From Candidatus Limnocylindrales bacterium (GTDB taxonomy: Bacteria > Chloroflexota > Limnocylindria > Limnocylindrales > CSP1-4), in contig DASTOB010000061.1 in assembly GCA_035720425.1 (NCBI GenBank), positions 29,870 to 93,869 of the forward strand: a DNA stretch of 64,000 bases, in the 5' to 3' direction. Both the position numbers and the translations under genes were made by a program. The notes below the pieces were generated by a model. The model ran no database searches, was not told where the DNA came from, and saw only the letters and a list, made by a program, of their open reading frames with translations. Of this stretch, positions 8,643-43,569 are shown one piece after another (the first letter of the stretch is position 1; every line of letters begins with the position of its first letter).

Positions 8643-8839
8643 CGCGGGATGCGCGTTCCGGGTACGGCATTCTGCCTATTGCCGCGCGACGATCCCGGCG
8701 CGCACGCTCCGAGGTGCCGGTTACGGCGCACCGCCGGGGAGCGGATCGTGATCCTGCACGCGCGCTCGGCGCGATCCGCTCCCCGACCCTCGTCACGATC
8801 GAAGGCTCGTGACGCGCGCGCCGTACGTGCGGGTCCCCC

Positions 8840-8848
8840 TGCTAGAAT
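8840..8848 (+). promoter_or_regulatory. Candidate extended -10 promoter element (TGCTAGAAT) upstream of nuoA
   Basis: The sequence TGcTAGAAT lies in the 320-bp gap before nuoA, about 115 nt upstream of its GTG. The same TGCTAGNNT pattern recurs upstream of two other genes in this window. I found no convincing -35. Confidence 0.4.
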
Positions 8849-8962
8849 GACCACGCGGATGGGGACCATTCGAACTGCCCGCCGCCCACCCCAGGGGAAG
8901 TCCGATCCACCGTTCCGTGAGCGCCGCCGCAGGGGCCGGCGAGCGCCTTCAGTGAGGCTCGC

Positions 8963-9319
8963 GTGACCGGCATCTGGTACGTCGTCGGGTTCGCCGTCGC
9001 CGGCGTGTCGTTCGTCTTTCTGACGATCGGCGCGGCGTGGCTCATCTCGCATCGCAACCGGGGCGACGTCCACAAGGGCCTGCCGTACGAGTCCGGCATT
9101 GACACATTCGGCGACACGCACGGGCGGTTCGGCCTGTCGTTCTACATCTACGCGCTGCTGTTCGTCGCCTTCGACATCGAAGTGATCTTCCTCTACCTTT
9201 GGGCCATCGTGTTCCGCGATCTCCTGCTCGGCGGGTTCATCAGCATGCTCATCTTCGTCGTCGTCCTCCTATTCGGGCTGTTCTACGCCTGGCGGAAGGG
9301 GGTGCTGTCGTGGGACTGA
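8963..9319 (+). CDS. nuoA: NADH-quinone oxidoreductase subunit A
   Basis: 118 aa, three TM segments, and [10 protein letters not shown]...[12 protein letters not shown]. Confidence 0.92.
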
Positions 9320-10005
9320 AGCCGGACGCCACGACCGCCGTCGTGACGACCGGGTCGACCGACGTCGTCGAGGCCATCGAGGTACCGAATGCCCTGTGGC
9401 AGCCGTCGGATCCGGCGGCCTACGGTGGCGGGCAGCCGACCGACATCACGCACCTCCGGGAGCTCGCTGAGGGCGACGCCCTGCGCCGTGACAACGCCCG
9501 CTGGTCCGGCGCGCTCGAGATCATCCCGACCAAGGCGGACTACGTCCTCGACCTGATCCGTGCCAACAGCCTGTGGCCGCTCCTGTCCGGCCTGGCCTGC
9601 TGCGCCTTCGAGATGATGTCGAGCGCGACGAGCAAGAACGACATCGATCGGTGGGGGATGTTCCCGTTCCGGGCCAGCCCACGCCAGGCGGACGTGCTCA
9701 TCGTCGCAGGCACGCTCACGACGAAGATGGCCGGGCCGCTCGTCCGGCTGTGGGAGCAGATGCCGGAGCCCAAGTGGTGCGTGGCGATGGGCGACTGCAC
9801 GTGCTCCGGCGGCCGCTACAAGCGGAGCTACTCGACGGTCGAGGGCATCGATCGGGTCATGCCGGTCGACGTCTACGTGCCGGGCTGCCCGCCGCGGCCG
9901 GAGGGCCTCATCTACGGGATGATGAAGCTCCAGCAGCTCGTCAAGGACCGCCGCGGACACTGGCCGGAGCGGGCGATCGGACCGACGGTTCCCGAGGACG
10001 TCTGA
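9310..10005 (+). CDS. nuoB: NADH-quinone oxidoreductase subunit B (N2 cluster)
   Basis: GLACCAFEM...[16 protein letters not shown]...[13 protein letters not shown]...[14 protein letters not shown] chose the GTG at 9310, which overlaps the nuoA end. Confidence 0.92.
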
Positions 10006-10554
10006 GTGGACAAGGCCCTGGCCCGCCGGCTCGAGGCGCGCTTCGGTTCGACCCTGGCGGGCCCCGTCCGGCAGCGCCACGACGAGACCGAGATCCGGAT
10101 CGCCGCGAGCGAGGTCCCGGAGGTCATGCGCGCGCTCCATGACGAGCCGGAGTTCGGGTTCGAGCTCCTCGCGGACCTGGCCGGCGTCGACACCGGCGAG
10201 GTCATGCAGGTCGTCTATCACCTGTGGAGCGCGACGAGCCCGGACTGGCTGCGGGTCATCGCCGACGGCCTGCCGCGCGAGGCGCCGCGTGCGCCGTCCG
10301 TGACCTTCCTGTGGAAGGGCGCGGAGTGGCTCGAGCGCGAGGCGTATGACATGTTCGGGATCACGTTCGAGGGCAACCGGGATCTGCGGCGCATCTTCAT
10401 GCCGCCTGACTACACCTCCTTTCCGCTGCGCAAGGACTTCTACCTGGCGGACGATGCAGCGCGTTCGCCCGGCGCGGGCGTGCGCCACATGGAACGCACG
10501 CACGAGCCCGCCAATACCCCGGGCGCCGAGCGCACCCGGCGGGTCAGGACGTGA
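10006..10554 (+). CDS. nuoC: NADH-quinone oxidoreductase subunit C
   Basis: FELLADLAGVD...WKGAEWLEREAYDMFGITFEGNRDLRRIFMP. Confidence 0.9.
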   Translation: MDKALARRLEARFGSTLAGPVRQRHDETEIRIAASEVPEVMRALHDEPEFGFELLADLAGVDTGEVMQVVYHLWSATSPDWLRVIADGLPREAPRAPSVTFLWKGAEWLEREAYDMFGITFEGNRDLRRIFMPPDYTSFPLRKDFYLADDAARSPGAGVRHMERTHEPANTPGAERTRRVRT

Positions 10555-10567
10555 GCGACCAGCGGCG

Positions 10568-11788
10568 ATGACGACCGAGTCGCGCCACGCGTCCGCCGAT
10601 GACCCGCGCGTCCTGCTCGACGAGCAGGTCGGCGTGTTCGAGCCGGTCCCGCCATACCCGCCGCGCACAGAACGCGAGGCGGAGTTCTACACGCTGCGCG
10701 ACGGCGAGATGTTCATCAACATCGGGCCGCACCATCCGTCCACCCACGGCGTCCTGCGGGTGGTGATGAAGATCGACGGCGAGAACGTCGTCGATCTCGA
10801 TCCCGTCCTCGGCTACCTCCATCGCGGCGTCGAAAAGCTGTGCGAGAACGCGGACTTCCATCACACGATCGCGTACATGGATCCGCTCGAATACATCGCC
10901 TCGCTGTTCTGCGAGTGGCCGGCGGTCATGGCCTACGAGAAGCTGCTCGACGTGGGGGTGCCGCGGCGGGCGGAGTACATCCGGGTCCTGACCGGTGAGC
11001 TGAACCGGATCTCGAGCCATGCGCTCGCGATGGGCTTCCATGCCCTCGACCTCGGCGGGCTGACCCCGATCCTCTACTCGTTCATCGAGCGCGACGAGAT
11101 CGTCGAAATGCTCGCCTCGATCACCGGCCAGCGGATGCTCTTCAACTACTTTCGGATCGGCGGCGTCAACGGCGACCTCAACCACGACTTCATGAGTCGC
11201 CTCGGGACGTGGATGAGCCGCGCGACGACCCAGATCGAGGCCAACACGGGACTGCTCAACGAGAACGAGATCTTCGTCCGGCGCAACCGCGGGCTCGGGA
11301 CGATTGACCCCCAGACCGCGCTGCGGATGTGCTGGACCGGCCCGAACCTCCGCGCGACCGGCATCCCGTTCGACATCCGGCGAGCCCACCCGTACTCGGT
11401 CTACCCGGAGCTCGACTTCGACATCCCGACCCGGTCGGAAGGCGACGCGCTGGCCCGCTACCTGCTCCGCATCGACGAGATCAAGCAGAGCCTGCGGATC
11501 ATCGACCAGTGCCTCCACGAGATGCCGGACGGTCCGATCATGGCCAAGCTGCCGCGCCTGCTCCGGCCCCGGCCGGGCCGGGCCTTCGCCGCGGTCGAGG
11601 GACCGCGCGGTGAGTACGCGATCTACGCCGTGAGCGACGGGACGGACCAGCCGTTCCGCTTCCGCATCCACGACCCGAGCTTCCTCCACCTGCAGTCGTT
11701 CAACCTGCTCATGGAGGGTCGCCTCATCGCCGACTGGATGGCGATCAACGCGAGCCTCGACCCGATCATGGGCGGCGTCGACAAATGA
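10568..11788 (+). CDS. nuoD: NADH-quinone oxidoreductase subunit D
   Basis: MFINIGPHHPSTHGVLR...LGYLHRGVEKL...RISSHAL...EGPRGEYAIY...IHDPSFLHLQ...DPIMGGVDK. The start is the ATG at 10568 (MTTES). Confidence 0.93.
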   Translation: MTTESRHASADDPRVLLDEQVGVFEPVPPYPPRTEREAEFYTLRDGEMFINIGPHHPSTHGVLRVVMKIDGENVVDLDPVLGYLHRGVEKLCENADFHHTIAYMDPLEYIASLFCEWPAVMAYEKLLDVGVPRRAEYIRVLTGELNRISSHALAMGFHALDLGGLTPILYSFIERDEIVEMLASITGQRMLFNYFRIGGVNGDLNHDFMSRLGTWMSRATTQIEANTGLLNENEIFVRRNRGLGTIDPQTALRMCWTGPNLRATGIPFDIRRAHPYSVYPELDFDIPTRSEGDALARYLLRIDEIKQSLRIIDQCLHEMPDGPIMAKLPRLLRPRPGRAFAAVEGPRGEYAIYAVSDGTDQPFRFRIHDPSFLHLQSFNLLMEGRLIADWMAINASLDPIMGGVDK

Positions 11789-11921
11789 CGGCCGCGCTGG
11801 GACGGCCGACGCCCGCGTTGCCGACTGCGCGGGTGCGCTCACGTAGCGTGGGCTACGCTCGCTTCCCTGCTCGTCGGCGCCTTGGCCTCGGCTCGTCCGA
11901 GCGCGGCCACGGGATGCTCGC

Positions 11922-13274
11922 ATGACCGTCGTGGCGCGGACCTGGAATCGGTTGACCCTTCCCGGGAAGATCGTGTTCACGGTCGTGCCGGTGCTCGTCG
12001 TCCTGACGGTCGCCGCGGTGGTGGCGATCGCGCTCGTCGGCGAGGCGGTCCTCGAGATCCTCGGCGCGAACCTGCCGATCGTCCGCTTCGTCGTCGCGGC
12101 GACGGCGATCCTGCTCATGACGATCCCGACGGCGTTCCTCATCATCTACATGGAGATGAAGGGCATCGCCCTCATGAACCTGCGGATCGGGCCAGACCGG
12201 GTCGGGCCGTTCGGTTCCCTCCTGTCGGTCATCCACGGGCTCAAGGTCCTCATGAAGGAGGACTTCACCCCGACCGGCGCCGACTCGACGATCTTCACCC
12301 TCGCCCCGGTGGTCGTCTACCTGTCGGCCGTCATGGCCCTGCTCGTCATCCCGTTCGGGCCTGGCCTGTTCGGCGTCGACATGAACATCGCCCTGCTCTA
12401 CTTCTTCGCCGTCGGCGGGCTGACCGTCGTGGGCCTGCTCATGGGCGGATGGTCGAGCTTCAACAAGTACTCGCTGCTCGGCGGTCTCCGCTCCGCGGCC
12501 CAGATCATCAGCTATGAGATCCCGCTCACCCTGTCGGTCGTCGGCGTCCTCCTGCTGGCGGGCACGATGAGCCTCAACCAGCTCGTCCAGAACCAGGCCG
12601 GCTGGTTCACCGATTGGTACATCTGGCAGCAGCCGCTCGGCGCGCTCATCTTCTTCATCGCCGCCACGGCCGAGGCGAACCGGACCCCGTTCGACCTGAC
12701 CGAGGCGGACTCCGAGATCGTGGCCGGCTTCGCGACCGAGTACTCCGGGATGCGCTTCGGCTTCTTCTTCTTCGCCGAGTACGTGAATGTGTTCATCGTC
12801 TCGGCGCTCATGGTCACGCTCTTCTTCGGTGGCTGGAACGCGCCGTTCCCGTTCCCGGCCACGAGTCTCGCGCTCGACCCGGCATCACTCGGGATCGGCC
12901 TGCTCATCCTCATCGCCGTCGTGCCGGTCGTCGCCACGCTCGTCTTCGCGGCCCCGTTCTGGCTGCTCCGCCCGGCCTGGCCGGCGTGGTACGGGCTCGT
13001 CATCGGGTTCGTCCTGTTCAACCTCGTCGCCGTCGCCGCCGTCGTCGGCTGGGCGTACATCAGCTTCGACTGGGTGGCCGGCCTCGCCTGGTTCCTGGTC
13101 AAGACGTACTTCTTCGTGTTCGTCTTCGTGTGGATGCGCGGGACGCTGCCGCGAGTCCGGATCGACCAGCTCATGAATTTCGCCTGGAAGTGGCTCATGG
13201 AGCTCGCCTTCATCAACATCTTCATCACGGCCGGGGCCATCCTCGTGATCGACGCCCTGAGGTCCGGGTCGTGA
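11922..13274 (+). CDS. nuoH: NADH-quinone oxidoreductase subunit H, with N-terminal extension and internal insertion
   Basis: RIGPDRVGPFGSLLSVIHGLKVLMKEDFTP...NRTPFDLTEADSEIVAGFATEYSGMRFGFFFFAEY...RGTLPRVRIDQLM. At 450 aa it is long for NuoH. It follows nuoD directly, where nuoE would normally sit. Confidence 0.9.
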   Translation: MTVVARTWNRLTLPGKIVFTVVPVLVVLTVAAVVAIALVGEAVLEILGANLPIVRFVVAATAILLMTIPTAFLIIYMEMKGIALMNLRIGPDRVGPFGSLLSVIHGLKVLMKEDFTPTGADSTIFTLAPVVVYLSAVMALLVIPFGPGLFGVDMNIALLYFFAVGGLTVVGLLMGGWSSFNKYSLLGGLRSAAQIISYEIPLTLSVVGVLLLAGTMSLNQLVQNQAGWFTDWYIWQQPLGALIFFIAATAEANRTPFDLTEADSEIVAGFATEYSGMRFGFFFFAEYVNVFIVSALMVTLFFGGWNAPFPFPATSLALDPASLGIGLLILIAVVPVVATLVFAAPFWLLRPAWPAWYGLVIGFVLFNLVAVAAVVGWAYISFDWVAGLAWFLVKTYFFVFVFVWMRGTLPRVRIDQLMNFAWKWLMELAFINIFITAGAILVIDALRSGS

Positions 13275-13927
13275 GCTTCGTCCCGGGCATCGGCCTCGTG
13301 AAGGGCATGGCCCTGACCCTGCGCCGGTTCTTCGAGCCGAAGGTGACGGTCCGCTACCCGGAGGTCCAGGCGGACATCCCGCCGAAGTTCCGCGGCCGCC
13401 TCCAGCTGCTGTATGACGAGTACGGCACGATCAAGTGCGAGACGTGCTTCCAGTGCGCCCAGGCCTGCCCGATCGAGTGCATCGACATGGGCGGCATCGA
13501 CACGAAGGGTCGCTACCACGTCCACTGGGGCGCCCCGGAGACGTACGGCGAGCGGCGCGAGGAATCGGCCCTCCGACGCTCCGGCAGGCCCGTTCCGGAT
13601 CCCGCCTACGCCCACTTCGAGCCGATCGACCTCGGGCCGGTCGACGCCGTCCTCGACGAGTACGACCACGATCCGGCGCACATGCTCGCGATCCTCGAGG
13701 GAACGCAGGCCGCCTACGGCTACCTGCCGGTCGCGGCGCTCAAGCGGATCAGCCACCGAACTGGCGCGTGGTACGCGACGATCTACGGGACCGCGACGTA
13801 CTACCGGCACCTCCGGTTCGAGGCACCCGGTGACGCGCTCGCGGTGGCCGATGCGGCGGCGCGCCGGCCCGGCGACGCCGCCTACCTCGACGCGCTGACG
13901 ACGGCGATCGGGCGGCGGGTCCAGTGA
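13271..13927 (+). CDS. Fusion protein: N-terminal half of NuoI (one 4Fe-4S motif) plus a NuoE-like helical domain that lacks the 2Fe-2S cysteines
   Basis: The NuoI-type N-terminus is LRRFFEPKVTVRYPEVQADIPPKFRGRLQLLYDEYGTIKCETCFQCAQACPIECIDMG, with only one CxxCxxCxxxCP. It is followed by a NuoE-like segment, HMLAILEGTQAAYGYLPVAALKRISHRTGAWYATIYGTATYYRHLRF, with no Cys afterwards. The GTG start overlaps the nuoH stop (GTGA). Confidence 0.75.
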   Translation: MSFVPGIGLVKGMALTLRRFFEPKVTVRYPEVQADIPPKFRGRLQLLYDEYGTIKCETCFQCAQACPIECIDMGGIDTKGRYHVHWGAPETYGERREESALRRSGRPVPDPAYAHFEPIDLGPVDAVLDEYDHDPAHMLAILEGTQAAYGYLPVAALKRISHRTGAWYATIYGTATYYRHLRFEAPGDALAVADAAARRPGDAAYLDALTTAIGRRVQ

Positions 13928-13940
13928 CGACGGTGACCCG

Positions 13941-15275
13941 ATGACGACCGTGCTGTCGACCCCGGCCGCCTGGCCGCGGATCCTCCTCGCCCGCGCCGGT
14001 GCGGCCGATCCGACCGACCTCGACGCGGCGGTCCGAGCCGGTGCCTTCGAGGGCCTCCGGCGGGCCGTGCGCGACCTGGGCCCGACCGGGGCGATCGCGA
14101 CGGTCGCGGCCTCCGGGTTGCGCGGACGCGGCGGGGCAGGCTTCTCGACCGGCGAGAAGTGGCGCGCCTGCGCCGGGACCGAGGCGCCGCGCCGGTTCGT
14201 GGTCGCCAACGCCTATGGCGCCGACCCGGCCTCGCGCACCGACCTCGCGCTCATCGAGCTCGATCCGTATGCGGTCATCGAGGGGCTCGCGATCGCCGCC
14301 TACGCGATCGGCGCGCGCGAGGCGATCGTCGCGATCCGCGCCGACGCGGCCGACGCCGTCCGGGCGATCGAGCGGGCGGTCGCGGCCGCCACGAAGGCGG
14401 GCTACCTCGGCGACGGCGTGCTCGGCTCCGGACACGACATCGACGTCACCGTCCGGCCCGTCCAGGGCGCCTGGATGCTCGGCGAGGAGACGGTGCTGCT
14501 CAAGGCGCTCGAGGGCCGCCGTGGCCAGCCGGAGCAGCGGCCGCCGTACCCGGCACGGCGCGGCCTGTTCGGCGCTCCCACCGTCGTCCAGAACGTGCAG
14601 ACGCTCGCGGCCGTGCCGTGGATCGTGACGAACGGGCCGGAGGCGTTCGCGGCGATTGGAGACCCGGACGCCCCGGGCACGATCCTCGTCGGCCTGCGCG
14701 GCCCATCCGGCGACGGCATCGCGGAGGTGCCCCTCGGGACGCCGCTTCGCCAGGTGGCCGCGCTCGCGGGGAGCCTGCCGCGCGGCCGGACGCTCAAGGC
14801 CGTCCTCGTCGGTGGCCCGTCCGGCGGGATCCTGCCGCCGAGCCTGCTCGACACCCCGTACACGTACGCCGGCCTCCGGTCGGTCGGGGCCCACGTCGGC
14901 TCCGGCTCCGTGGTCGTGGCGGACGATCGGGCGTGCATCGTCGACCTCGCCCGGATCCTGACCGGCTTCTGTGCCACGGAGGCGTGCGGCAAGACCATCC
15001 CGTGCCGGATCGGGACGCAGCGGCTCCTCGAGATCGCCGAACGGTTCGCCGGCGGACGGGCCCGGCCGACCGATCCGGACCTTGTCGTGGACCTCTCGGC
15101 GGACATCGTCGGGAGCGCGCTGTGCGACCACGAGCGGCTGGCGACGCTTCCGCTCACGAGCGGGATGCGATACTTCCGCTCCGAGATCGACGACCACATC
15201 GTGCGCGGCACGTGCCCCGCCGGCGTCTGCCGGCCGATCGCCGCGCCGGCCACGTCCGCCGCCGGAGCCCACTGA
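13941..15275 (+). CDS. nuoF: NuoF-like FMN/NADH-binding flavoprotein subunit (51-kDa family)
   Basis: GLRGRGGAGFSTGEKW (FMN/NADH site) and GEETVLLKALEG. The cluster region FCATEACGKTIPCRIGTQR...LCDHE is non-canonical compared with the usual SCGKCTPCR. Confidence 0.85.
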   Translation: MTTVLSTPAAWPRILLARAGAADPTDLDAAVRAGAFEGLRRAVRDLGPTGAIATVAASGLRGRGGAGFSTGEKWRACAGTEAPRRFVVANAYGADPASRTDLALIELDPYAVIEGLAIAAYAIGAREAIVAIRADAADAVRAIERAVAAATKAGYLGDGVLGSGHDIDVTVRPVQGAWMLGEETVLLKALEGRRGQPEQRPPYPARRGLFGAPTVVQNVQTLAAVPWIVTNGPEAFAAIGDPDAPGTILVGLRGPSGDGIAEVPLGTPLRQVAALAGSLPRGRTLKAVLVGGPSGGILPPSLLDTPYTYAGLRSVGAHVGSGSVVVADDRACIVDLARILTGFCATEACGKTIPCRIGTQRLLEIAERFAGGRARPTDPDLVVDLSADIVGSALCDHERLATLPLTSGMRYFRSEIDDHIVRGTCPAGVCRPIAAPATSAAGAH

Positions 15276-15282
15276 CGACGCA

Positions 15283-17937
15283 ATGGCAGACCTGATCACC
15301 CGCCCCGACGCCAGGCCACCGGCCCCACCGGCCGGGTCGCCGGCCGACGCCTCGCTCGCCGAGCGCCTGCTCGAGACGCAGGCGCCGCAGCGGCCGATGT
15401 CGACGCCGCGCATCCGGATCGAGGTCGACGGTCGGGTCGTGGAGGGCTTCGAGGGCCAGACGATCCTCGAGGTCTGCCGCGACAACGGGATCGAGATCCC
15501 GACCCTGTGCTACGAGCCCAAGCTGCCCGGCTTCGGCGCCTGCCGGATGTGCGTCGTCGAGGTCGACGGGGAGGACCATCCACCGATCTCGTGCTCGCGC
15601 GACGCCGAGGCGGGGATGGTCGTGCGAACCCAGACGGACGAGGTCCGGCGCCTCCGACGGACGAACCTCGAGCTCATCTTCAGCGACCACAACGCGTACT
15701 GCCTGCCGCCCTGCCAGAACAAGTGCCCCAGCCACATCGACATCCCGGGCTTCCTGAAGCAGAACGCCGAGGGCAACTTCCGCGAATCGACACGGATCTT
15801 CAAGCGGACGATCCCCTTCCCGTCGGTCCTCGGCCGGGTCTGTCCGGCGCCGTGTGAGGAGCACTGCCGGCGCGACGAGGTGGACGAGGCGATCGCCATC
15901 CGCGACAGCCATCGCTACGCTGGCGACCAGGTCCTCCGGGCGATGCTCGACGACGGCGTCGATCCACCGGTGCCGTTCGAGGTCCAGCCCCGGACCGGCC
16001 GGCGGGCCGCCGTCATCGGCTCCGGGCCGGCGGGCATGTCCGCGGCGTACTACCTGCTCATCTCCGGCCACGACGTGACCGTCTTCGAGCGCGACCCGGC
16101 GCCGGGCGGGATGCTCCGCTACGGCATCCCGCAGTACCGCCTGCCCAAGGTCGAGGTGCTCGAGGCGGAGTACGAGTCGGTCACCCGGCTCGGCGGGCGG
16201 ATCGTGTGCAACCAGGGCCTCGGACGCGACTTCACCCTCGACGACCTGCGCAACCAGGGCTTCGACGCGGTCGTCGTCGCGATCGGCTGCTACGACACGA
16301 ACAAGCTCGGCATTCCGGGCGAGGACGCCGAGGGCGTCTACGACGGCCTCGAGTACCTGCGCACGGCCACGCTGGGCCTCGAGGTGCCGGGGCACGCCGG
16401 CAGCCGGGTCGTCGTCATCGGCGGCGGGTTCACCTCGATGGACTGCACGCGGACGTCGGTCCGCCAGGGCGCGAAGGAGGTCACCCTCGTCTATCGGCGC
16501 GACATGAAGGACATGCCGGCCGCGAACGAGGTTCACGAGGCGCTCGAGGAAGGCGCCCAGGCCATCTTCCAGGCCGGCCCGTCGCGGATCATCACGGATC
16601 CGAAGAGCGGGCGCGTGACCGGCGTCGAGTTCATCCGGATGCAGCTCGGCGAGCCGGACGCGTCGGGGCGGCGCCGGCCGGAGCCGGCGCCCGGGACCGA
16701 GTTCACGATCCCGTGCGACCGGGTGCTCCTCGCCATCGGCCAGGGCCCGGAGCTCGACTGGATCGGACCGGGATCAGAGGGGGTCGAGGCGACCCGCCAG
16801 CGCCGCCTCAAGGCGGACGCGGTCACGTTCGAGACCGGCCGGCCGGGCGTCTTCGGCACCGGCGACGTGCGGATCGGCGCGGCGACGGTCGTCCAGGCCA
16901 TCGCCGAGGGCCGCCGGGCCGCGTACGCGGTCGATGCCTACCTGCAGGGCCTCGACCTGGGCGCGATCCGCACCCGCCAGACCCTGGCCGAGCCGCAGCC
17001 GGAGTTCCTGTCCATCGTGCCGTTCACGAGCGAGGTGAAGGAGCCGCGCTACCGGATGACGGCTATGGAGCCGGAGGTCCGAAACCGGAGCTACGTCGAA
17101 TACGAGATCCCGTACTCGCGCGAGGAGGCGGTCGCCGAATCGACGCGCTGCCTCCAGTGCACGTGCGAGGCGATCGGGTTCTGTGACCTCCGCCGCCTCG
17201 GAATCGAGTACGGGACGACGCTCCGGACGCTCGAGCCGCAGCACCACCAGGGCGCGGGCTACCGGAGCGTGACGGAGAACCGCTTCACCGGCGTCAACCA
17301 CGACTACCTCCGCGACGACTCGCACGCGTTCATCCTGCGCGAGCCGTCGCGCTGCATCGACTGCGGCCGATGCGCCAACGTGTGCGCCGAGGTGGTCGGC
17401 GCGGCGTGCTACGACTTCATGCGGATCGGCTTCGACACGCTCGTCACGACGCCGCTCGACATGAGCCTCAACGACACGCCGTGCGTGTCGTGCGGGCGCT
17501 GTGCCGAGACGTGCCCCACCGGCGCGCTCATGCCGAAGCCACGCGTGCTCCAGAAGTACGAGGTCGACGAGAGCCGCTGCATCCTGTGCGGGATCTGCGT
17601 CGACGCGTGCCCGTACGACGCGTTGCGCGACGGGGCGGACTTCGAGCTGTCGCACACGAGCCGGCAGGATCCGATGATCGACCTGCTCGCGATCGCCGCG
17701 GTCGAGCGCGAGACGGAGGTCACGTACATCCGGCGCGAGCGGGACTGGCTCGAGCGCGCGACGGCGGAGGGTCGGGTCATCGGCTCCGACCGGCTCCTCC
17801 CGGTCCTGCCGCCAACCGTCGCTGCGCGCGGCGAGACGGGCAACGGCCACGGGCACGGCAACGGCAACGGCCATACCGACGGGCACGGGATCACCGGGAT
17901 CGGGCCCGGCGGATCCGGCCACGCCCACCCGAAGTAG
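15283..17937 (+). CDS. Multi-domain Fe-S flavoprotein: NuoG-type N-terminal Fe-S module interrupted by a GltD/NfnB-type FAD-NAD(P)H domain and ending in the C-terminal half of NuoI
   Basis: - 2Fe-2S motif: LCYEPKLPGFGACRMCVVEV...ISC.
- H/C cluster: DHNAYCLPPCQNKCP.
- GltD-like domain: VCPAPCEEHC, AAVIGSGPAGMSAAYYL, VVVIGGGFTSMDC, FGTGDV..ATVVQAIAEGRRAA.
- NuoG N4-like region: CIDCGRCANVCAEVVG...CVSCGRCAETCPTGAL.
- NuoI second half: KYEVDESRCILCGICVDACPYDALRDGADFELS.
- His/Gly-rich tail: GNGHGHGNGNGHTDGHG...GHAHPK.
- I saw no molybdopterin-like NuoG C-terminal domain. Confidence 0.8.
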   Translation: MADLITRPDARPPAPPAGSPADASLAERLLETQAPQRPMSTPRIRIEVDGRVVEGFEGQTILEVCRDNGIEIPTLCYEPKLPGFGACRMCVVEVDGEDHPPISCSRDAEAGMVVRTQTDEVRRLRRTNLELIFSDHNAYCLPPCQNKCPSHIDIPGFLKQNAEGNFRESTRIFKRTIPFPSVLGRVCPAPCEEHCRRDEVDEAIAIRDSHRYAGDQVLRAMLDDGVDPPVPFEVQPRTGRRAAVIGSGPAGMSAAYYLLISGHDVTVFERDPAPGGMLRYGIPQYRLPKVEVLEAEYESVTRLGGRIVCNQGLGRDFTLDDLRNQGFDAVVVAIGCYDTNKLGIPGEDAEGVYDGLEYLRTATLGLEVPGHAGSRVVVIGGGFTSMDCTRTSVRQGAKEVTLVYRRDMKDMPAANEVHEALEEGAQAIFQAGPSRIITDPKSGRVTGVEFIRMQLGEPDASGRRRPEPAPGTEFTIPCDRVLLAIGQGPELDWIGPGSEGVEATRQRRLKADAVTFETGRPGVFGTGDVRIGAATVVQAIAEGRRAAYAVDAYLQGLDLGAIRTRQTLAEPQPEFLSIVPFTSEVKEPRYRMTAMEPEVRNRSYVEYEIPYSREEAVAESTRCLQCTCEAIGFCDLRRLGIEYGTTLRTLEPQHHQGAGYRSVTENRFTGVNHDYLRDDSHAFILREPSRCIDCGRCANVCAEVVGAACYDFMRIGFDTLVTTPLDMSLNDTPCVSCGRCAETCPTGALMPKPRVLQKYEVDESRCILCGICVDACPYDALRDGADFELSHTSRQDPMIDLLAIAAVERETEVTYIRRERDWLERATAEGRVIGSDRLLPVLPPTVAARGETGNGHGHGNGNGHTDGHGITGIGPGGSGHAHPK

Positions 17938-17946
17938 GCCGTCCGC

Positions 17947-18552
17947 ATGCCCTCCTGGATCCCCGGGGCGTTCCGGCCGCTGATCGCCACCGCGGTCCTC
18001 GCCGGCATCGTGCTGACGCCGGCGATCCTGACCGTCCTGCTGTGGGGCGGTGACTTCACCGACGCCCTGTTCCTCGTCTTCGCCGTGACCATGCTCGTGT
18101 CCGCGCTGGCGGTCGTGACGATGCGCGACATCATCCGCTGCGGTCTGGCGATGATCGTCTGCTTCGGTGCCCTCGCCGGCATCTACCTGCTCGCCGGCGC
18201 GACGCTCGTCGCCGCCGCCCAGGTCGTCGTCTACATCGGCGCGATCAGCGTGCTCATCCTGTTCGCGATCATGCTGACCGAGACGAAGGCGGCCCCGTCG
18301 CGGCTCGTGTTCCAGACCCAGGCCGGGCCGGCCGGTGTCGCCGCCGTGGTGCTCGCCATCGTCATCGCGATCACGGTCACGGCGACCGACTGGGGCGAGC
18401 TCGGCGAGCGCCTCCACACGGCGACGGACACGCTCGCCCGGCTGCTCTTCGCGGACTACGTCCTGCCCTTCGAGATCGTCGGCGTCCTCCTCCTCGCGGC
18501 CGTCATCGGTGGCGTGTTCATCGCCAAGCGCGAGCGGGGCGAGTCGCTGTGA
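17947..18552 (+). CDS. nuoJ: NADH-quinone oxidoreductase subunit J
   Basis: 201 aa, five TM segments, [22 protein letters not shown], and a C-terminal [16 protein letters not shown]. Confidence 0.9.
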
Positions 18553-18863
18553 TCGCCAACTCGCTCGATGCCTACCTGATCCTGTCCGGGCTCCTGTTCG
18601 CCATCGGCACGTTCGGCTTCCTCGCACGGCGCAACGCGATCAGCATGCTCATGTCGATCGAGCTCATGCTCAACGCGGTGAACCTCGCGATCGTCGCCTT
18701 CGGCGCGTTCGTCGCCGGCCTGGCGGAGAACGGATCGGTCATCGCGATCATGGTCATCGCCGTCGCGGCGGCCGAGGCGACGGTGGGGCTCGCGATCGTC
18801 ATCGCCATCTTCCGCAACCGGCGGACGCCGCTCGTCGACGAATACGACGCGATGCGGCGGTAA
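18549..18863 (+). CDS. nuoK: NADH-quinone oxidoreductase subunit K
   Basis: 104 aa, with [14 protein letters not shown] and [12 protein letters not shown]. The GTG start overlaps the nuoJ stop. Confidence 0.92.
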
Positions 18864-18869
18864 GGCACG

Positions 18870-20819
18870 ATGGACGTCCTCGTTCCGCTCATCGCGATCC
18901 TGCCGCTGGCAGGGTTCGCGATCACCGCGCTCGTCGGGCGGCGGCTCGACAAGGAGGCCCACTGGATCCCGGTCGGCCTCGTTGTCGTCGCCTGGGCGAT
19001 CTCGATGGTCGTCGCGTACCTCGCGCTCACCCACGCGGAACCGTTCGGGGAGCACGGCTTCGGGGTCACGCTGTACGAGTGGATCCCGGCCGGCGACTTC
19101 GTCGTCGAGGCGGGCTTCTTCGTCGACACCCTGACGGCCTGCCTGCTCATCGTGGTCACCACGATCGGCATGCTCGTGCACGTCTACTCGATCGGCTACA
19201 TGAGCCACGACCCGGGGTACTGGCGCTTCTTCGCCTACCTCAACCTGTTCATGTTCTCGATGCTCCTGCTCGTCCTCGCGGACAGCTTCCTCGTCGTGTT
19301 CGTGGCCTGGGAGCTGGTCGGCCTGTCGAGCTACCTGCTCATCGGGTTCTGGTACCGCAAGCGGACCGCCGCTCTGGCGGCGAAGAAGGCGTTCATCGTC
19401 AACCGCGTCGGCGACGTGGGCTTCGCGCTCGGGATCATGCTCATCTTCGTGAGCCTCGGCACGCTCGACATCCGCGAGACGATCGAGCGCATCGGGGAGC
19501 TCGAGCCGCTCACGATCAGCGTCATTTCGCTCCTCATCTTCGCCGGGGCGATGGGCAAGAGCGCCCAGTTCCCGCTCCACGTGTGGTTGCCCGACGCGAT
19601 GGAGGGCCCGACGCCCGTCTCCGCGCTCATCCACGCCGCGACGATGGTCAACGCCGGCGTCTACCTCGTGGCCCGCACGAGCCCGATCTTCGCCCACGCC
19701 CCCGAGGCGCTCGTGGTCGTCGCCGCGATCGGCATCTTCACCGCCATCCTGGCCGCCTCGATCGCGCTGACCCAGACGGACATCAAGCGCGTGCTCGCCT
19801 ATTCGACGCTCAGCCAGCTCGGCTACATGTTCGCCGCCCTCGGTGTCGGCGCGTTCACCGCCGCGATCTTCCATCTCATGACCCACGGTTTCTTCAAGGG
19901 CCTGCTGTTCCTCGGCTCGGGCTCCGTCATCCACGCCGTGCACGAGGAGCAGGACATGCGCCGGATGGGCGGCCTGCGTCGGAAGATCCCGATCACCTAC
20001 GCGACGATGCTCGTCGGCTCGCTCGCGATCGCCGGCATCCCGCCGCTGGCCGGCTTCTTCAGCAAGGACGAGATCCTCGGCGAGTCGTTCAAGCTCGGGT
20101 TCGCGTGGGTCTGGTTCATCGGCTTCGTCGTGGCCGGCCTCACCGCGTTCTACATGTTCCGGCTCATGGGCCTCACGTTCTGGGGCGAGTTCCGCGGTCC
20201 GCGCGAGGTCTGGGACCGGATCCATGAATCGCCGCGGGTCATGACCGTGCCGCTCATCCTGCTCGCCATTCCGTCCGCCCTGCTCGGCCTGTACCTGGGC
20301 CTGCCACTCGGCGACAGCACGCTCCACCACTGGCTCGAGCCGGTGTTCCACGAGGCCACCGAGCTGCTCCACCACGAGCTCGAGCCATATGCGCTGTTCG
20401 GGATCGACGGCGTGCTCATCCTGGCCAGCGTCGGGGTCGCCGCGGTCGGCATCGCGATCGCCTGGCGGCTGTTCGGCGTCGAGCTGCCCGGCCTTCGGCA
20501 CCGCGCCCCGGACCCGGAGGCGGTTCGCACCCTGACCGCCCGCGCGCCGTTCCTCTACCGCGCGTCGCTCAACAAGTGGTGGTTCGACGAGCTCAACGAC
20601 CTGCTGTTCATGCGGATCGGCGGCCGGATCGCGGCCGCCCTATGGTGGTTCGACCGCGAGATCGTCGACGGGATCGTCAACGGGGCGGGAGCCGTGACGC
20701 GTGCCAGCGGCCGGGGTCTCGCCGAGGTCCAGACCGGCCGGGTCCAGAACTACGCCCTCGGGATCGCGATCGGGCTGATCGTGATGGCCGGCTCCTACCT
20801 GTGGATCGCGGGGCGCTGA
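18870..20819 (+). CDS. nuoL: NADH-quinone oxidoreductase subunit L
   Basis: Antiporter-like subunit: WELVGLSSYLLIGFW, GAMGKSAQFPLHVWLPDAMEGPTPVSALIHAATMV and a C-terminal lateral-helix region. Confidence 0.93.
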   Translation: MDVLVPLIAILPLAGFAITALVGRRLDKEAHWIPVGLVVVAWAISMVVAYLALTHAEPFGEHGFGVTLYEWIPAGDFVVEAGFFVDTLTACLLIVVTTIGMLVHVYSIGYMSHDPGYWRFFAYLNLFMFSMLLLVLADSFLVVFVAWELVGLSSYLLIGFWYRKRTAALAAKKAFIVNRVGDVGFALGIMLIFVSLGTLDIRETIERIGELEPLTISVISLLIFAGAMGKSAQFPLHVWLPDAMEGPTPVSALIHAATMVNAGVYLVARTSPIFAHAPEALVVVAAIGIFTAILAASIALTQTDIKRVLAYSTLSQLGYMFAALGVGAFTAAIFHLMTHGFFKGLLFLGSGSVIHAVHEEQDMRRMGGLRRKIPITYATMLVGSLAIAGIPPLAGFFSKDEILGESFKLGFAWVWFIGFVVAGLTAFYMFRLMGLTFWGEFRGPREVWDRIHESPRVMTVPLILLAIPSALLGLYLGLPLGDSTLHHWLEPVFHEATELLHHELEPYALFGIDGVLILASVGVAAVGIAIAWRLFGVELPGLRHRAPDPEAVRTLTARAPFLYRASLNKWWFDELNDLLFMRIGGRIAAALWWFDREIVDGIVNGAGAVTRASGRGLAEVQTGRVQNYALGIAIGLIVMAGSYLWIAGR

Positions 20820-20821
20820 CG

Positions 20822-22468
20822 ATGGCCGTGTCGAGCATCCCGATCCTCACGATCGTGACCTTCCTGCCCCTTGCCGGGGCGATTGCCGTCGCCCTCCTTC
20901 CGAGGTCGGCCGCCCGCCCCGTGGCGCTGGCCGCCGCGCTGCTCGCGTGGGTGGCCTCGCTCCTGCTCCTCGTCGGCTTCGTCCCGACGCCGGTCGCCCA
21001 TCGCTTCCAATTCGTCGAGGTCGCCGACTGGATCCCCCTGTTCGGGATCCAGTACAAGCTCGGCGTCGACGGCCTGTCGGTCGTCCTCGTCGTGCTCACC
21101 ACGACGCTCATGTGGATCAGCATCCTCGCCTCGTTCCGCCCGATCCAGGAGCGGATCAAGGAGTACATGGTCTCGTTCCTCATCCTCGAGGTCGGGATGA
21201 TCGGCGTGTTCGTCGCCCTCGACACGTTCCTGTTCTACATCTTCTGGGAAGTCGTCCTCGTTCCGATGTACCTGATCATCGGCATCTGGGGCGGCGCGAA
21301 CCGGATCTACGCGACGATCAAGTTTGTCCTGTACACGCTCGTCGGGTCGCTGCTCATGCTCGTCGCGATCCTCGCCACCGCGTTCGCGTTCCAGGACGCG
21401 AACGGCGGCTCGTGGGTCGGCGCGTTCGACTTCGAGGCCCTGCGGGCCCACGCGGCGACGACCGGCTTCGCCGATGGGCTCCAGCTCTTCGCGTTCGCCG
21501 CGTTCTTCCTCGCCTTCGCGATCAAGGTCCCGATGTTCCCGTTCCACACGTGGCTGCCGGATGCCCACGTCGAGGCACCCACGGCGGGCTCCGTGATCCT
21601 CGCCGGCGTGCTGCTCAAGCTCGGCGGTTACGGGTTCATTCGGTTCGCCCTGCCGCTCTTCCCGGCGGCCGCGCAGGCCTACGCGCCGGCGATCATCGGG
21701 CTCAGCCTCATCGCGATCATCTACGGGGCGATCGTCGCCCTCGTCCAGCCGGACCTCAAGAAGCTCGTCGCGTACAGCTCGGTCAGCCACATGGGCTTCG
21801 TCACGCTCGGCATCTTCGTGTTCCGGGAACAGGGCATGCAGGGCGCGATCCTCCAGATGGTGAATCACGGGCTCATCACCGGCGCCCTGTTCCTGCTCGT
21901 CGGCGTGATCTACGAGCGGACGCACGATCGGACGATCGCGAAGATGGGCGGGCTGTCGGCGAGCGTGCCGGTCTATGCCGCGCTGCTCGGGTTCTTCGTC
22001 TTCGCCTCCGGCGGGCTGCCCGGCCTGTCCGGGTTCGTCGGCGAGTTCCTCGCCCTCGTGGGCGCGTTCGACTACAGCCCGGCCGTCGGCGCGATCGCCA
22101 CGTTCTGCATGATCCTCGCCGCGGGCTATCTGCTGTGGATGTTCCAGCGAGTCGTGTTCGGCGAGCTGTCCGACTTCCTCAAGGGGCTCGGCCACCACCT
22201 CACCGACGTGTCGCCGATCGAGCTCCTCACGCTCACGCCGCTCGCCGCACTTGTCGTCGTCCTCGGCCTGTTCCCGGGTCTCGTGCTCCACCTCATCGAG
22301 GGGTCCGTGCTCGGCGCCCTGTCGGACGTGGAGCCGGTGCCGCCGGCGGCGATCGATCCCGTCGTGCCGGTCGTCGTCGGCATCGTGCTCCTGGCGATCG
22401 TCGCGTTCCGGGTGCTCGCCATCATCGGGCCGGCCGCCGAGCCAGCCGAACCGGCGGAGGCGGCCTGA
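20822..22468 (+). CDS. nuoM: NADH-quinone oxidoreductase subunit M
   Basis: FYIFWEVVLVPMYLIIGIWGG...KVPMFPFHTWLPDAHVEAPTAGSVILAGVLLKLGGYG. I used the ATG at 20822 (MAVSSIPIL). Confidence 0.93.
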   Translation: MAVSSIPILTIVTFLPLAGAIAVALLPRSAARPVALAAALLAWVASLLLLVGFVPTPVAHRFQFVEVADWIPLFGIQYKLGVDGLSVVLVVLTTTLMWISILASFRPIQERIKEYMVSFLILEVGMIGVFVALDTFLFYIFWEVVLVPMYLIIGIWGGANRIYATIKFVLYTLVGSLLMLVAILATAFAFQDANGGSWVGAFDFEALRAHAATTGFADGLQLFAFAAFFLAFAIKVPMFPFHTWLPDAHVEAPTAGSVILAGVLLKLGGYGFIRFALPLFPAAAQAYAPAIIGLSLIAIIYGAIVALVQPDLKKLVAYSSVSHMGFVTLGIFVFREQGMQGAILQMVNHGLITGALFLLVGVIYERTHDRTIAKMGGLSASVPVYAALLGFFVFASGGLPGLSGFVGEFLALVGAFDYSPAVGAIATFCMILAAGYLLWMFQRVVFGELSDFLKGLGHHLTDVSPIELLTLTPLAALVVVLGLFPGLVLHLIEGSVLGALSDVEPVPPAAIDPVVPVVVGIVLLAIVAFRVLAIIGPAAEPAEPAEAA

Positions 22469-22518
22469 GCCATGCCTGACGCCCGCCCGATGCCTGCATC
22501 CCGCCCGGTGCGTTCCTC

Positions 22519-23982
22519 ATGACCGCTGCCGACCTCGTCACGATCGCGCCGCTTGCCGCCGCTGTGCTCGTCGCCATCGCGGTCATCGTCGTCGACCTCG
22601 CCTGGCCGGGTCGGTCGGAGCCGGTCGTGTTCGTGTCGCTGGCCGGCCTGGCCGTCGTCGCCGGCCTGATCGTCGTGACCGGCGCGACCGCGGCCTCGGC
22701 GTTCGGCGGGTCGTACACGGTCGACGCCCTGACGACGTTCCTCGACCTGCTGTTCGTGGCGATCGTCGGCCTCACGATCGCGTTCGGTCCGGACTACCTC
22801 CGGCCAAGGGACCTACCGCTCGCGGAATTTGCGACGGTGCTCATCTTCGCGATGTGCGGGGCGATGCTCATCGCCGCCTCGACGGACCTGCTCCTCCTGT
22901 TCCTCGGCCTCGAGCTCATGGTCCTGCCCGGCTACCTGCTGGCGGGCTACCACAAGACGGACGGTTACTCGACCGAGGGGGCGATCAAGTACTTCCTGCT
23001 CGGTTCGTTCAGCTCGGCGATCTTCCTGTTCGGCCTCGCGTTCGTGTGGGGGCTGACCGGCACGACACGCGTCGCCGGCGTCGCCGAGGCGCTGTCCGGG
23101 ATTGCCGCCGGCTCGGCTGTTTTGTCGCCGGGCCTGGCGATGGGCCTCGCGTTCATGACCACTGGCGTCGCGTTCAAGATCGCGGCGGTCCCGTTCCATT
23201 ACTGGACGCCGGATGCGTATCAGGGCTCGCCGACGCCGATCACCGGCTACCTCTCGGTGGGCCCGAAGGTCGGCGCCTTCGCGCTGATCCTGCGCCTGTT
23301 CGTCGAGGCGCTCGGGCCGCTCCGCGAGGAGTGGCTGCCGGTCGTCGTCGTGCTCGCCGCGATCACGATGACGCTCGGCAACCTGGTCGCGCTCACGCAG
23401 ACGAACGTCAAACGGATGCTGGCCTACAGCTCGATCGCCCACACCGGGTACATGCTCGTGGGCCTCGCGGCGTACGCCGCAGGACGGATGGAGGGCCTCG
23501 AGGGCCTGCTGTTCTACGGAGCGGCCTACTCGTTCATGAACCTCGGCGCCTTCGCCGTCGTCGCCGCCCTCCAGAAGCGGGCCGGCGTCACCTCCGGGCT
23601 CGACACGTTCGCCGGGCTCGGGCGGCGCGAGCCGGTCCTCGGGATCCTCATGACGCTGTTCCTCCTGTCGCTCACCGGCATCCCGCCGACGGCCGGGTTC
23701 TTCGCCAAGGCGTACGTGATCCTCGCCGCGGTCCAGGCCGGCGGTGGGGTCGCGTTCCTCGCCGTGATCGCCGTGCTCAACGCGGCGGCGGCCGCGTTCT
23801 ACTACCTGCGCGTCGTCGTGTACATGTTCATGCGCGAGCCGCGGACCGAGGCCGAGCCGCTCCGGCACGGTCGCCTGCTGTGGGTGGGGCTGGCGGCAGC
23901 GACGGTCCTGACGATCGTCTTCGGCGTGTTCCCGAATGCCCTGCTCGACGCCGTGGGAGCGGCCGCCCGGGCCATCGGGTAA
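22519..23982 (+). CDS. nuoN: NADH-quinone oxidoreductase subunit N
   Basis: LELMVLPGYLLAGY...FKIAAVPFHYWTPDAYQGSPTPITGYLSVGPK...KRMLAYSSIAHTGY. Confidence 0.93.
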   Translation: MTAADLVTIAPLAAAVLVAIAVIVVDLAWPGRSEPVVFVSLAGLAVVAGLIVVTGATAASAFGGSYTVDALTTFLDLLFVAIVGLTIAFGPDYLRPRDLPLAEFATVLIFAMCGAMLIAASTDLLLLFLGLELMVLPGYLLAGYHKTDGYSTEGAIKYFLLGSFSSAIFLFGLAFVWGLTGTTRVAGVAEALSGIAAGSAVLSPGLAMGLAFMTTGVAFKIAAVPFHYWTPDAYQGSPTPITGYLSVGPKVGAFALILRLFVEALGPLREEWLPVVVVLAAITMTLGNLVALTQTNVKRMLAYSSIAHTGYMLVGLAAYAAGRMEGLEGLLFYGAAYSFMNLGAFAVVAALQKRAGVTSGLDTFAGLGRREPVLGILMTLFLLSLTGIPPTAGFFAKAYVILAAVQAGGGVAFLAVIAVLNAAAAAFYYLRVVVYMFMREPRTEAEPLRHGRLLWVGLAAATVLTIVFGVFPNALLDAVGAAARAIG

Positions 23983-43537: not shown

Positions 43538-43569
43538 GAGGGAAATCGGCCTCCTGCACGAGCGTTGAG

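Follow-up and report, generated by a model that had tools for sequence, protein, structure and literature searches.

Operon layout and domain structure of the 884-residue protein

The window analysed here (64,000 nucleotides of contig DASTOB010000061.1 from a Candidatus Limnocylindrales bacterium, with a G+C content of about 72%) contains a nuo operon of the respiratory complex I kind, and this text is concerned with a protein of 884 amino acids (aa) encoded in the middle of that operon and with the two genes preceding it. We refer to the three as gene X (13271-13927), F' (13941-15275) and G' (the 884-aa protein, 15283-17937, starting with ATG at 15283 and ending with a stop codon at 17935-17937). 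According to Pfam and profile matches, the operon comprises 13 genes in the order nuoA-B-C-D-H-[NuoI N-half::NuoE']-F'-[2Fe-2S/GltD/4Fe-4S chain::NuoI C-half]-J-K-L-M-N (Table 1). The membrane arm (A, H, J, K, L, M, N) and the Q-module (B, C, D) are present as complete sets by Pfam. NuoD keeps the HPSTHG and GYLHRG motifs and has no NiFe cysteines, and the N2 ligands of NuoB are intact; judged by these motifs, the quinone end of the complex appears to be of the complex I type. Three features of a canonical N-module are missing, namely the N1a domain, an N3 cluster with four cysteines and the molybdopterin-like domain of NuoG. No separate nuoI gene was found in the operon by Pfam and profile searches, nor was any second NuoI-, NuoF- or NuoG-like sequence found within the 64-kb window.

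G' is a composite iron-sulfur flavoprotein. Its N-terminal [2Fe-2S] domain, which aligns to residues 3-101 of StnC, is followed by a partial NuoG His/Cys cluster motif (aa 125-141), a GltD/DPD-type 4Fe-4S region (Fer4_20, aa 140-217, Pfam E 2e-18), a Pyr_redox_2 domain (aa 242-543, Pfam E 1e-29) and, further downstream, a Fer4_Nqo3-like domain (aa 684-749, Pfam). A reading of this DNA from the sequence alone, made earlier, had described a GltD-type domain inserted into a NuoG-like iron-sulfur module; all motifs that it quoted from the 884-aa open reading frame (ORF) are present in the order given. Its view that the molybdopterin-like bulk of NuoG is absent agrees with the lack of any Pfam match of G' to a molybdopterin family. 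A return to the NuoG N4-type region, also proposed there, stands as far as the NuoG/HydA-type 4Fe-4S motifs (aa 616-750) are concerned; the last ferredoxin motif (CILCGICVDACPYDAL), which had been included, belongs instead to the C-terminal half of NuoI. The segment CAETCPTGALMPKPRVLQKYEVDESRCILCGICVDACP aligns to polyferredoxin repeats, which is consistent with consecutive clusters at close spacing.

Comparison with solved structures covers G' continuously over aa ~43-778, with 9bov_A (E 1e-165), StnC (8oh5_C, E 2e-146) and archaeal NfnA (9n5u_A, E 6e-145) as matches; E-values down to 1e-165 exclude chance as an explanation. The alignment stops near residue 701 of the 1172 residues of StnC. 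The GltD domain also matches 4ylf_B, 5jca_L and 2vdc_G in the PDB. Across 81 orthologs, conservation is at least 90% for all iron-sulfur ligands, the GSGPAG motif for flavin adenine dinucleotide (FAD), the second Rossmann motif GGGFTSMD, VYRR and GTGDV; the VYRR stretch is common to StnC and 9bov_A. Domain and homology searches thus bear out the GltD-type fold that the sequence-only reading had assumed, glycine motifs included. Since the FAD motif GxGxxG, the second Rossmann motif and VYRR are kept, a predicted NADPH site in the GltD domain is well supported by homology.

Two other names for G' were considered and rejected. Relatives are called formate dehydrogenase major subunit by the JGI, which we regard as an annotation artefact, the molybdopterin-binding catalytic domain being absent. 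The NCBIfam model PRK12814 spans aa 44-703 (E 4e-167), with 557 bits and thus below its family cut-off of 916 bits; gltB is absent from the operon, and G' is not a glutamate synthase small subunit proper but GltD-like in fold only. Many tblastn matches to G' end near aa 846, where a His/Gly-rich tail begins that could bind metal or be without meaning.

Table 1. Features of the nuo operon, of the proteins X and G', and of selected further genes in the window
Feature	Position	Strand	Basis or remark
MidA/NDUFAF7-type S-adenosylmethionine (SAM) methyltransferase	7329-8642	+	PF02636 E 2e-53; directly upstream of nuoA
nuoA	8963-9319	+	Pfam
nuoB	probable start 9310, to 10005	+	Pfam; CC...C...PGCPP ligands of cluster N2 kept
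nuoC	10006-10554	+	Pfam
nuoD	probable start 10568, to 11788	+	Pfam; without NiFe cysteines
nuoH	11922-13274	+	Pfam
Gene X (218 aa), NuoI N-half and NuoE/BfuC-type helical domain	13271-13927	+	G+C at third codon positions (GC3), profile and PDB matches
X: NuoI N-terminal half, aa 9-73	13295-13489	+	first CxxCxxCxxxCP motif CETCFQCAQACP
X: NuoE/StnA/HydC-type helical domain, aa 117-188	13619-13834	+	9bov_C E 1e-12, StnA E 1.5e-9
F' (444 aa), NuoF/BfuB-core flavoprotein	13941-15275	+	Pfam Complex1_51K and NADH_4Fe-4S
G' (884 aa), StnC/NfnA-type Fe-S flavoprotein	15283-17937	+	Pfam, NCBIfam, PDB matches
G': [2Fe-2S] domain, aa 43-118	15409-15636	+	Fer2_4 E 2e-21; Cys at least 90% conserved
G': His/Cys cluster motif HNAYCLPPCQNKCP and GltD-type 4Fe-4S region VCPAPCEEHC, aa 125-217	15655-15933	+	Fer4_20; aligns with StnC and 9bov_A; at least 90% conserved
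G': GltD/NfnB-type FAD and NADPH dinucleotide-binding domains, aa 238-556	15994-16950	+	Pyr_redox_2 and PDB matches
G': CLQCTC...C cluster motif and 2x[4Fe-4S] NuoG/HydA-type ferredoxin domain, aa 616-750	17128-17532	+	Pfam, PDB alignment, conservation
G': NuoI C-terminal half, aa ~751-830	17533-17772	+	second CxxCxxCxxxCP motif CILCGICVDACP; NuoI-specific FE(L/F)S tail
G': His/Gly-rich low-complexity tail (GNGHGHGNGNGHTDGHG...GHAHPK), aa ~846-884	17818-17934	+	length and sequence variable among orthologs
nuoJ	17947-18552	+	Pfam
nuoK	18549-18863	+	Pfam
nuoL	18870-20819	+	Pfam
nuoM	probable start 20822, to 22468 (frame of 20576-22468)	+	Pfam
nuoN	22519-23982	+	Pfam
recF-like gene	51405-52565	-	side observation
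dnaN	52582-53700	-	side observation
dnaA	54019-55770	-	side observation

The two halves of NuoI and the subunits X and F'

Gene X, which the mechanical list of ORFs does not contain, starts with a GTG that overlaps the stop codon of nuoH (GTGA), and its reading frame has a GC3 of 0.85-0.97. Positions 13-88 of the 180 in NuoI models are matched by residues 9-83 of X, a stretch that contains the first CxxCxxCxxxCP motif; conservation of this motif is at least 90% among 66 orthologs, and in distant relatives it is invariant. The second half of NuoI is matched by aa ~751-801 of G' (positions 71-116 of 121 in TIGR01971): the last ferredoxin motif of G' is followed by DGADFELSHTSRQD, a NuoI-specific segment that reads EGPNFEFSTETREE in a mitochondrial subunit. 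On solved NuoI chains, X and G' occupy adjacent, non-overlapping ranges, namely residues 6-68 (by aa 9-71 of X) and 73-128 of Nqo9, 76-140 and 152-197 of plant TYKY, and 8-78 and 84-130 of the NuoI of M. smegmatis. Taken singly, the halves score 54 and 61 bits against TIGR01971 (positions 1-64 and 71-116); when they are re-joined in silico (aa 1-82 of X plus the C-half from G'), they give one stretch over positions 1-116 of 121 with 104 bits and E 3e-30. This lies just below the 113-bit cut-off of the model and speaks for NuoI content that is present, split and divergent.

NuoI is thus divided over two polypeptides, the N-terminal half in X and the C-terminal half in G', where it takes the place of the formate dehydrogenase-like domain of StnC. 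The split would tie the whole module covalently to the Q-module and is, in our view of these alignments, the most unusual feature of the locus. The sequence-only reading had missed the split NuoI, the nature of X as a fusion gene and the missing nuoI.

The C-terminal part of X (aa 117-188) aligns to 9bov_C 19-90 and StnA 16-87, its best matches in the PDB; in relatives, this helical domain is the part that docks on the flavoprotein. A NuoE-like piece had been noted before, and a NuoE-type helical domain is indeed found, as the C-terminal part only of the 218-aa X, the rest being the NuoI half. The 2Fe-2S thioredoxin-like (N1a) domain is absent from X, of which aa 124-188 match positions 2-65 only of the 145 positions of the model 2Fe-2S_thioredx. 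Residues 74-116 of X (13490-13620, GGIDTKGRFHVHWGAPETYGERREESALRRSGR), which link the NuoI half to the NuoE-like domain, are mostly at least 90% conserved in orthologs of the Limnocylindria type; they match no family and probably have a structural role at the junction.

F' is a flavoprotein of the NuoF kind whose bit scores are higher against the B subunits of bifurcating enzymes in the PDB (357-360 for 9bov_B, HydB and StnB; 9bov_B with E 2e-106) than against the complex I NuoF of M. smegmatis, E. coli and T. thermophilus (243-299). It aligns to the B-subunit cores only (9bov_B 103-526, HydB 117-541, StnB 102-527), and by Pfam and PDB alignment the N-terminal 2Fe-2S and C-terminal 2x[4Fe-4S] domains are absent. 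Orthologs keep the GRGGAGF loop, GEET and three N3 cysteines to at least 90%. The Stn-like composition claimed in the sequence-only reading therefore holds at the sequence level for all three proteins, with G' resembling StnC, F' resembling StnB, HydB and NfnB, and the NuoE-like part resembling 9bov_C and StnA.

Two ORFs in other frames were considered and discarded. The 161-aa ORF 13413-13898 was rejected as the NuoE-like piece (no Pfam match, low GC3, wrong frame relative to 13271-13927), and 20947-22479 was rejected as nuoM (no Pfam match; the true nuoM lies in the frame of 20576-22468). High G+C content yields long spurious ORFs in other frames, and the former is an example.

Distribution, relatives and neighbouring genes

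A scan of a collection with one genome per species returned at least 556 matching stretches, of which the best 80 were fetched as loci; these 80 are almost all metagenome-assembled genomes (MAGs) of Chloroflexota, Limnocylindrales or Limnocylindria. The order D-H-X-F-G-J-K-L is found in every one of the fetched loci whose contig covers those genes, and because it recurs in each of these independently assembled genomes, chance or an assembly artefact was rejected. Identity to the window proteins is 82-88% for G', 67-84% for X and 64-74% for F'. The ratio of nonsynonymous to synonymous substitution rates (dN/dS) is 0.19 for G', 0.28 for X and 0.35 for F', with 0.34 for NuoH and 0.42 for NuoJ; F' is similar to NuoH and NuoL in this respect. 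Purifying selection acts on X, F' and G', with the strongest constraint, among the proteins tested, on G'.

Close relatives of G' and of X in the protein database number thousands of metagenome proteins (2966 for X at E<=1e-5). Their public names ("ferredoxin", "hypothetical", "formate dehydrogenase major subunit", "FAD-dependent oxidoreductase") obscure the link to complex I. With the current gene names, automated pathway calls would probably score the complex I of these organisms as lacking NuoE, NuoG and NuoI.

More remote NuoI-N::NuoE fusions, at 30-44% identity, came from an exhaustive search that used X without a profile. Five candidates (P0268, P0278, P0298, P0308, P0342) were dropped as frameshifted hybrids of the true and an alternative frame. 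In locus L081 (GCA_040769125.1, contig JAXGLO010000001.1, 6255-20762), the order is nuoA-B-C-D-H-[NuoI-N::complete NuoE]-B subunit-G'-J-K-L-M-N. The B subunit has 636 aa, with N-terminal 2Fe-2S and C-terminal 2x[4Fe-4S] domains and the canonical motifs NGDEGDPGAF and CGKCVPC, the C subunit has a full 2Fe-2S domain, and G' (824 aa) carries the NuoI C-half at its end. By its domain content, L081 holds a complete Bfu core inside a split NuoI, and its product is a candidate for a membrane-bound enzyme using NADH, NADPH, ferredoxin and quinone.

Locus L083 (a Chloroflexi MAG, JACPPZ010000003.1, 6481-14281) has the order nuoA-B-C-D-H-X-F-G', with nuoJ-N not adjacent; genes for a flavin reductase, a GYD-domain protein and a pyruvate:ferredoxin oxidoreductase lie downstream of G' in their place. 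Locus L085 (JGI metagenome 3300085309, on a 1.68-Mb contig, 8230-15458) is further reduced to nuoB-nuoD-X(239 aa)-F(404 aa)-G'(804 aa)-NDUFAF7-like, and no nuoA, C, H or J-N was found near this cluster. It could encode a soluble enzyme consisting of the peripheral arm only, or its membrane genes could lie elsewhere. In both L083 and L085 types, the B and C subunits are trimmed and the Tyr substitution in the flavin loop (see below) is present, with the four-cysteine N3 kept. A series from a full Bfu core (L081) over a trimmed core (L083, L085) to a remodelled N3 (the window type) is plausible from these sequences, and the variants look like successive stages. As side observations, an HNH-nuclease-like ORF lies just upstream of the L085 cluster, and its PF02636 methyltransferase gene (14358-15458) lies directly downstream of G'.

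A gene of that methyltransferase family is also found in the window, at the other end of the operon (Table 1). Mitochondrial NDUFAF7 methylates the homologue of NuoD, and by analogy the MidA/NDUFAF7-type protein may be an assembly factor here. An NDUFAF7 gene has been described as adjoining 11-subunit nuo operons in Actinomarina (preprint). Directly downstream of nuoN lies a gene of the trehalose-6-phosphate synthase type (GT20, 24049-25683, + strand), and a gene for myo-inositol-1-phosphate synthase follows at 32217-33482 (+); the two suggest compatible-solute or cell-envelope functions. A 1912-aa ORF (38057-43795, - strand) has weak matches to protein O-mannosyltransferase (PMT) in its C-terminal third, and the remainder is without a Pfam match. 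The chromosomal replication origin is probably located at around 56 kb, some 32 kb past the last nuo gene.

Proposed function, origin and alternatives

We hypothesize that electrons enter a variant respiratory complex I mainly through G', and that this complex would act as a proton-pumping, non-bifurcating NAD(P)H:quinone oxidoreductase, and we put the probability of this reading at about 0.6. In the proposed mechanism, the two NuoI halves would assemble into one 2x[4Fe-4S] domain (N6a/N6b) and clamp the module onto NuoB, NuoC and NuoD. The FAD in the GltD domain would accept a hydride from NADPH; electrons would pass along the clusters of G' and then, on the branch that leads nowhere in Stn, leave through its 2x[4Fe-4S] domain to N6a/N6b, N2 and quinone, and NuoL, NuoM and NuoN would pump protons. 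F' probably retains flavin mononucleotide (FMN) and oxidises NADH, the electrons joining the same wire by way of a remodelled N3 that would have three Cys and possibly a His. Since the extra cluster domains of F' and the 2Fe-2S domain of X are missing, the window enzyme is most likely non-bifurcating.

Several observations weigh against this reading. The specificity for NADPH rests on motif conservation with relatives, and the use of NADPH or NADH by the enzyme is something that we infer from sequence. An AlphaFold model of the re-joined NuoI from single-sequence input has a mean pLDDT (predicted local distance difference test) of 38, too low to be of use for the geometry of the path from the G' clusters to N6a. 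Linked by one wire, an NADPH site and an NADH site would tend to bring both pools into equilibrium, a situation that cells as a rule avoid. In F', the flavin loop is changed from NADEGDPGAF to N(G/A)YGADPAS (NAYGADPAS in the window), with loss of the Asp-Glu pair, and the second N3 Cys is Thr (50) or Ser (24) in 74/74 orthologs, so that F' may be without FMN binding or electron transfer. Of the two nucleotide-binding flavin sites postulated in the sequence-only reading, the FAD/NADPH site in the GltD domain stands by homology and the one in F' is uncertain.

These changes in F' speak for the main rival, in which the enzyme uses NADPH only: F' and the NuoE' stub would be structural relics holding G', and all electrons would enter through the GltD FAD of a proton-pumping NADPH:quinone oxidoreductase. 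The absence of the N1a domain fits such a view, as does the lower conservation of F', the least conserved of the soluble subunits (see the identities above). However, the residues that replace the canonical ones are themselves conserved. The N3 motif of the window F' reads CGKTIPC...LCDH (residues 349-355 and 395-397), with CGK(T/S)IPC in 74/74 close orthologs, and a His two residues past the fourth Cys (LC(D/E)HER; His397) is present in 74/74 orthologs and co-varies perfectly with the exchange of Cys for Thr or Ser; the three distant relatives examined keep CxxCxxC and lack the His. The change looks like a ligand swap rather than decay, and the remodelled cluster may be held by three Cys and one His or be of the 3Fe-4S kind. 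The retention of GRGGAGF (the nucleotide- and FMN-binding glycine loop), GEET and three N3 cysteines, and a dN/dS of F' equal to that of core membrane subunits, also argue against a relic, and we consider NADPH-only use unlikely.

Electrons might also flow in the opposite direction, with the GltD domain as the output of a membrane-anchored transhydrogenase that makes NADPH from NADH (through F') or from quinol by reverse flow driven by the proton gradient. Stn and Nfn are reversible transhydrogenases, Stn having NADPH:NAD+ oxidoreductase activity, and by homology both sites of the window enzyme lie on one Fe-S chain. But the domains with which Stn binds ferredoxin to drive NADP+ reduction are absent, the set of antiporter-like subunits is complete, and the splicing of the module into NuoI suggests that electrons go to N6a/N6b and quinone, all of which makes an output function quite improbable. 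Bifurcation or confurcation as in Stn and Nfn-Bfu or as predicted for Nuo-Bfu, with ferredoxin as an additional substrate, is less credible still: the closest solved relatives do bifurcate and the distant L081 keeps a complete Bfu core in the same split-NuoI operon, yet the window and all 74 close orthologs lack the 2Fe-2S and 2x[4Fe-4S] domains of the B subunit and the 2Fe-2S domain of the C subunit. Domains of this kind are held to be necessary in the literature (PMC10482914, PMC9304861).

Finally, X, F' and G' could form a soluble Stn-like enzyme that is encoded in the nuo operon and detached from complex I, as the clusters L085 (nuoB-nuoD-X-F-G') and L083 without adjacent membrane-arm genes might be taken to indicate. 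Each NuoI half, however, holds just one ferredoxin half-motif, the window has no other nuoI, the reduced clusters still keep NuoB and NuoD beside X, and wherever a fetched locus covers the operon, the gene order is the same; we give this idea hardly any credence.

Returning to a non-bifurcating complex I with G' as its main input subunit, its origin may be sought in a single event. A three-gene cassette of the Stn/Nfn-Bfu type (C-type, B-type, and A-type with GltD) sits at the position of nuoI, in in-frame fusion to both NuoI halves. It would have been inserted once, between the two ferredoxin half-motifs of nuoI, and the formate dehydrogenase-like domain would have been lost later, as would the bifurcation cluster domains in the window lineage. 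In a wider proposal, which we advance tentatively and hold to be on the doubtful side, a whole Stn/Nfn-type operon inserted into nuoI gave rise to a complex I family with its input module stitched into a split ferredoxin subunit; its members would pump protons and oxidise both NADPH and NADH in Limnocylindria, and the L081 type could be a proton pump in the membrane that handles NADH, NADPH, ferredoxin and quinone together. If this is true, the family records the stepwise capture of a soluble bifurcating module by an 11-subunit complex I, followed by simplification. The split NuoI would represent a rare insertion of an operon into a gene with both junctions in frame, and it offers a testable picture of input modules grafted onto an 11-subunit ancestor. 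Complex I is regarded as NADH-specific. A natural complex I with a built-in NADPH site would, if true, change models of redox balance and energy yield for a lineage that is very abundant in soil and freshwater.

Comparison with known systems

The insertion of a GltD-like NADPH/FAD domain into a NuoG-like domain is already known and defines StnC and NfnA (PMC10482914). In Stn, electrons pass from FAD through clusters C7, C6, C5, C4 and C3 to the flavoprotein, and a side branch of C2 and C1, in a catalytically dead FdhF-like domain, is considered a non-functional remnant; NADPH oxidation by StnC has been shown experimentally, NADPH:NAD+ oxidoreductase activity has been found for Stn, and deletion of the StnA cluster abolishes bifurcation and not NADPH oxidation (PMC10482914). 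StnABC (8oh5/8oh9) shares the gene order of the window module, with NuoE-like, NuoF-like and NuoG-like proteins, the last with the inserted GltD domain. G' aligns to StnC 3-701, F' to StnB (357 bits) and X to StnA 16-87, and the Fe-S motifs are the same up to the 2x[4Fe-4S] domain. In contrast, the FdhF-like domain (StnC 683-1172; cluster C1 and tetramer formation) is absent from G', which has the NuoI C-half instead; C114 of StnC is Ile and the cluster ligand K170 is His in G'; and the StnA 2Fe-2S domain and the extra cluster domains of StnB are missing. Stn is soluble, whereas the window module is encoded inside a complex I operon.

The best solved matches for all three window proteins are found in Nfn-Bfu (NfnABC; PDB 9bov/9bp5 and 9n5u/9n5v; PMC11829005, PMC12018979), 9bov presumably belonging to PMC11829005. 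Enzymes of this group are soluble and bifurcate, and their B and C subunits are complete, unlike the trimmed subunits of the window in their complex I operon. For Nuo-Bfu, Schut et al. (2022) predict BfuABC in place of NuoEFG in 14-gene nuo clusters of Deferribacteres, Proteobacteria, Planctomycetes and Nitrospirae, forming a proton-pumping quinone reductase, and bifurcation is taken to depend on the additional cluster domains of subunits B and C (PMC9304861). The position of the module in the middle of the nuo operon is the same as in the window. However, a GltD insertion and a split NuoI, both of which the window has, are not mentioned in the passages of that paper covered here, and the window differs further in an A subunit of the Nfn/Stn kind, truncated B and C subunits and 13 genes.

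With canonical complex I (2fug, 7awt, 8e9g), the window operon shares A, B, C, D, H, J-N and the N2 ligands, NuoI-like and NuoF-like sequences and the N-terminal Fe-S region of NuoG. It differs by a NuoI in two pieces on two polypeptides, an extra FAD/NADPH domain with additional clusters and a three-Cys N3, and by the lack of N1a and of the molybdopterin-like domain of NuoG. Once the insert is removed, the backbone A-B-C-D-H-I-J-K-L-M-N is that of the 11-subunit complex I (NDH-1, Fpo, "ancestral" nuo) described by Moparthi and Hägerhäll (PMC3144371). In those enzymes, electron input also occurs at or beside NuoI, and an NDUFAF7-like gene is sometimes adjacent, but the input module is absent or separate (FpoF, ferredoxin, NdhS), whereas in the window it would be covalently part of NuoI. 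In mbx-like operons, a gltD-related flavoprotein substitutes for NuoI as an NAD(P)+-reducing output (Degli Esposti 2015, PMC4758237). What these have in common with the window is that a GltD-type NAD(P)H flavoprotein takes the place of NuoI in a membrane complex related to complex I; however, they belong to the hydrogenase-like Mbx/Mbh branch, and neither NuoE- and NuoF-like subunits nor a split NuoI are reported for them (PMC4758237).

Our search of the literature on Limnocylindria, GltD-bearing complex I, Bfu, split or fused NuoI and 11-subunit complex I, in which subscription journals were partly covered, found no split NuoI and no Stn-type module in a nuo operon. Placed among these systems by its sequences, the window enzyme would be a complex I with an alternative input module, and the way in which this module appears to be attached is very unusual.

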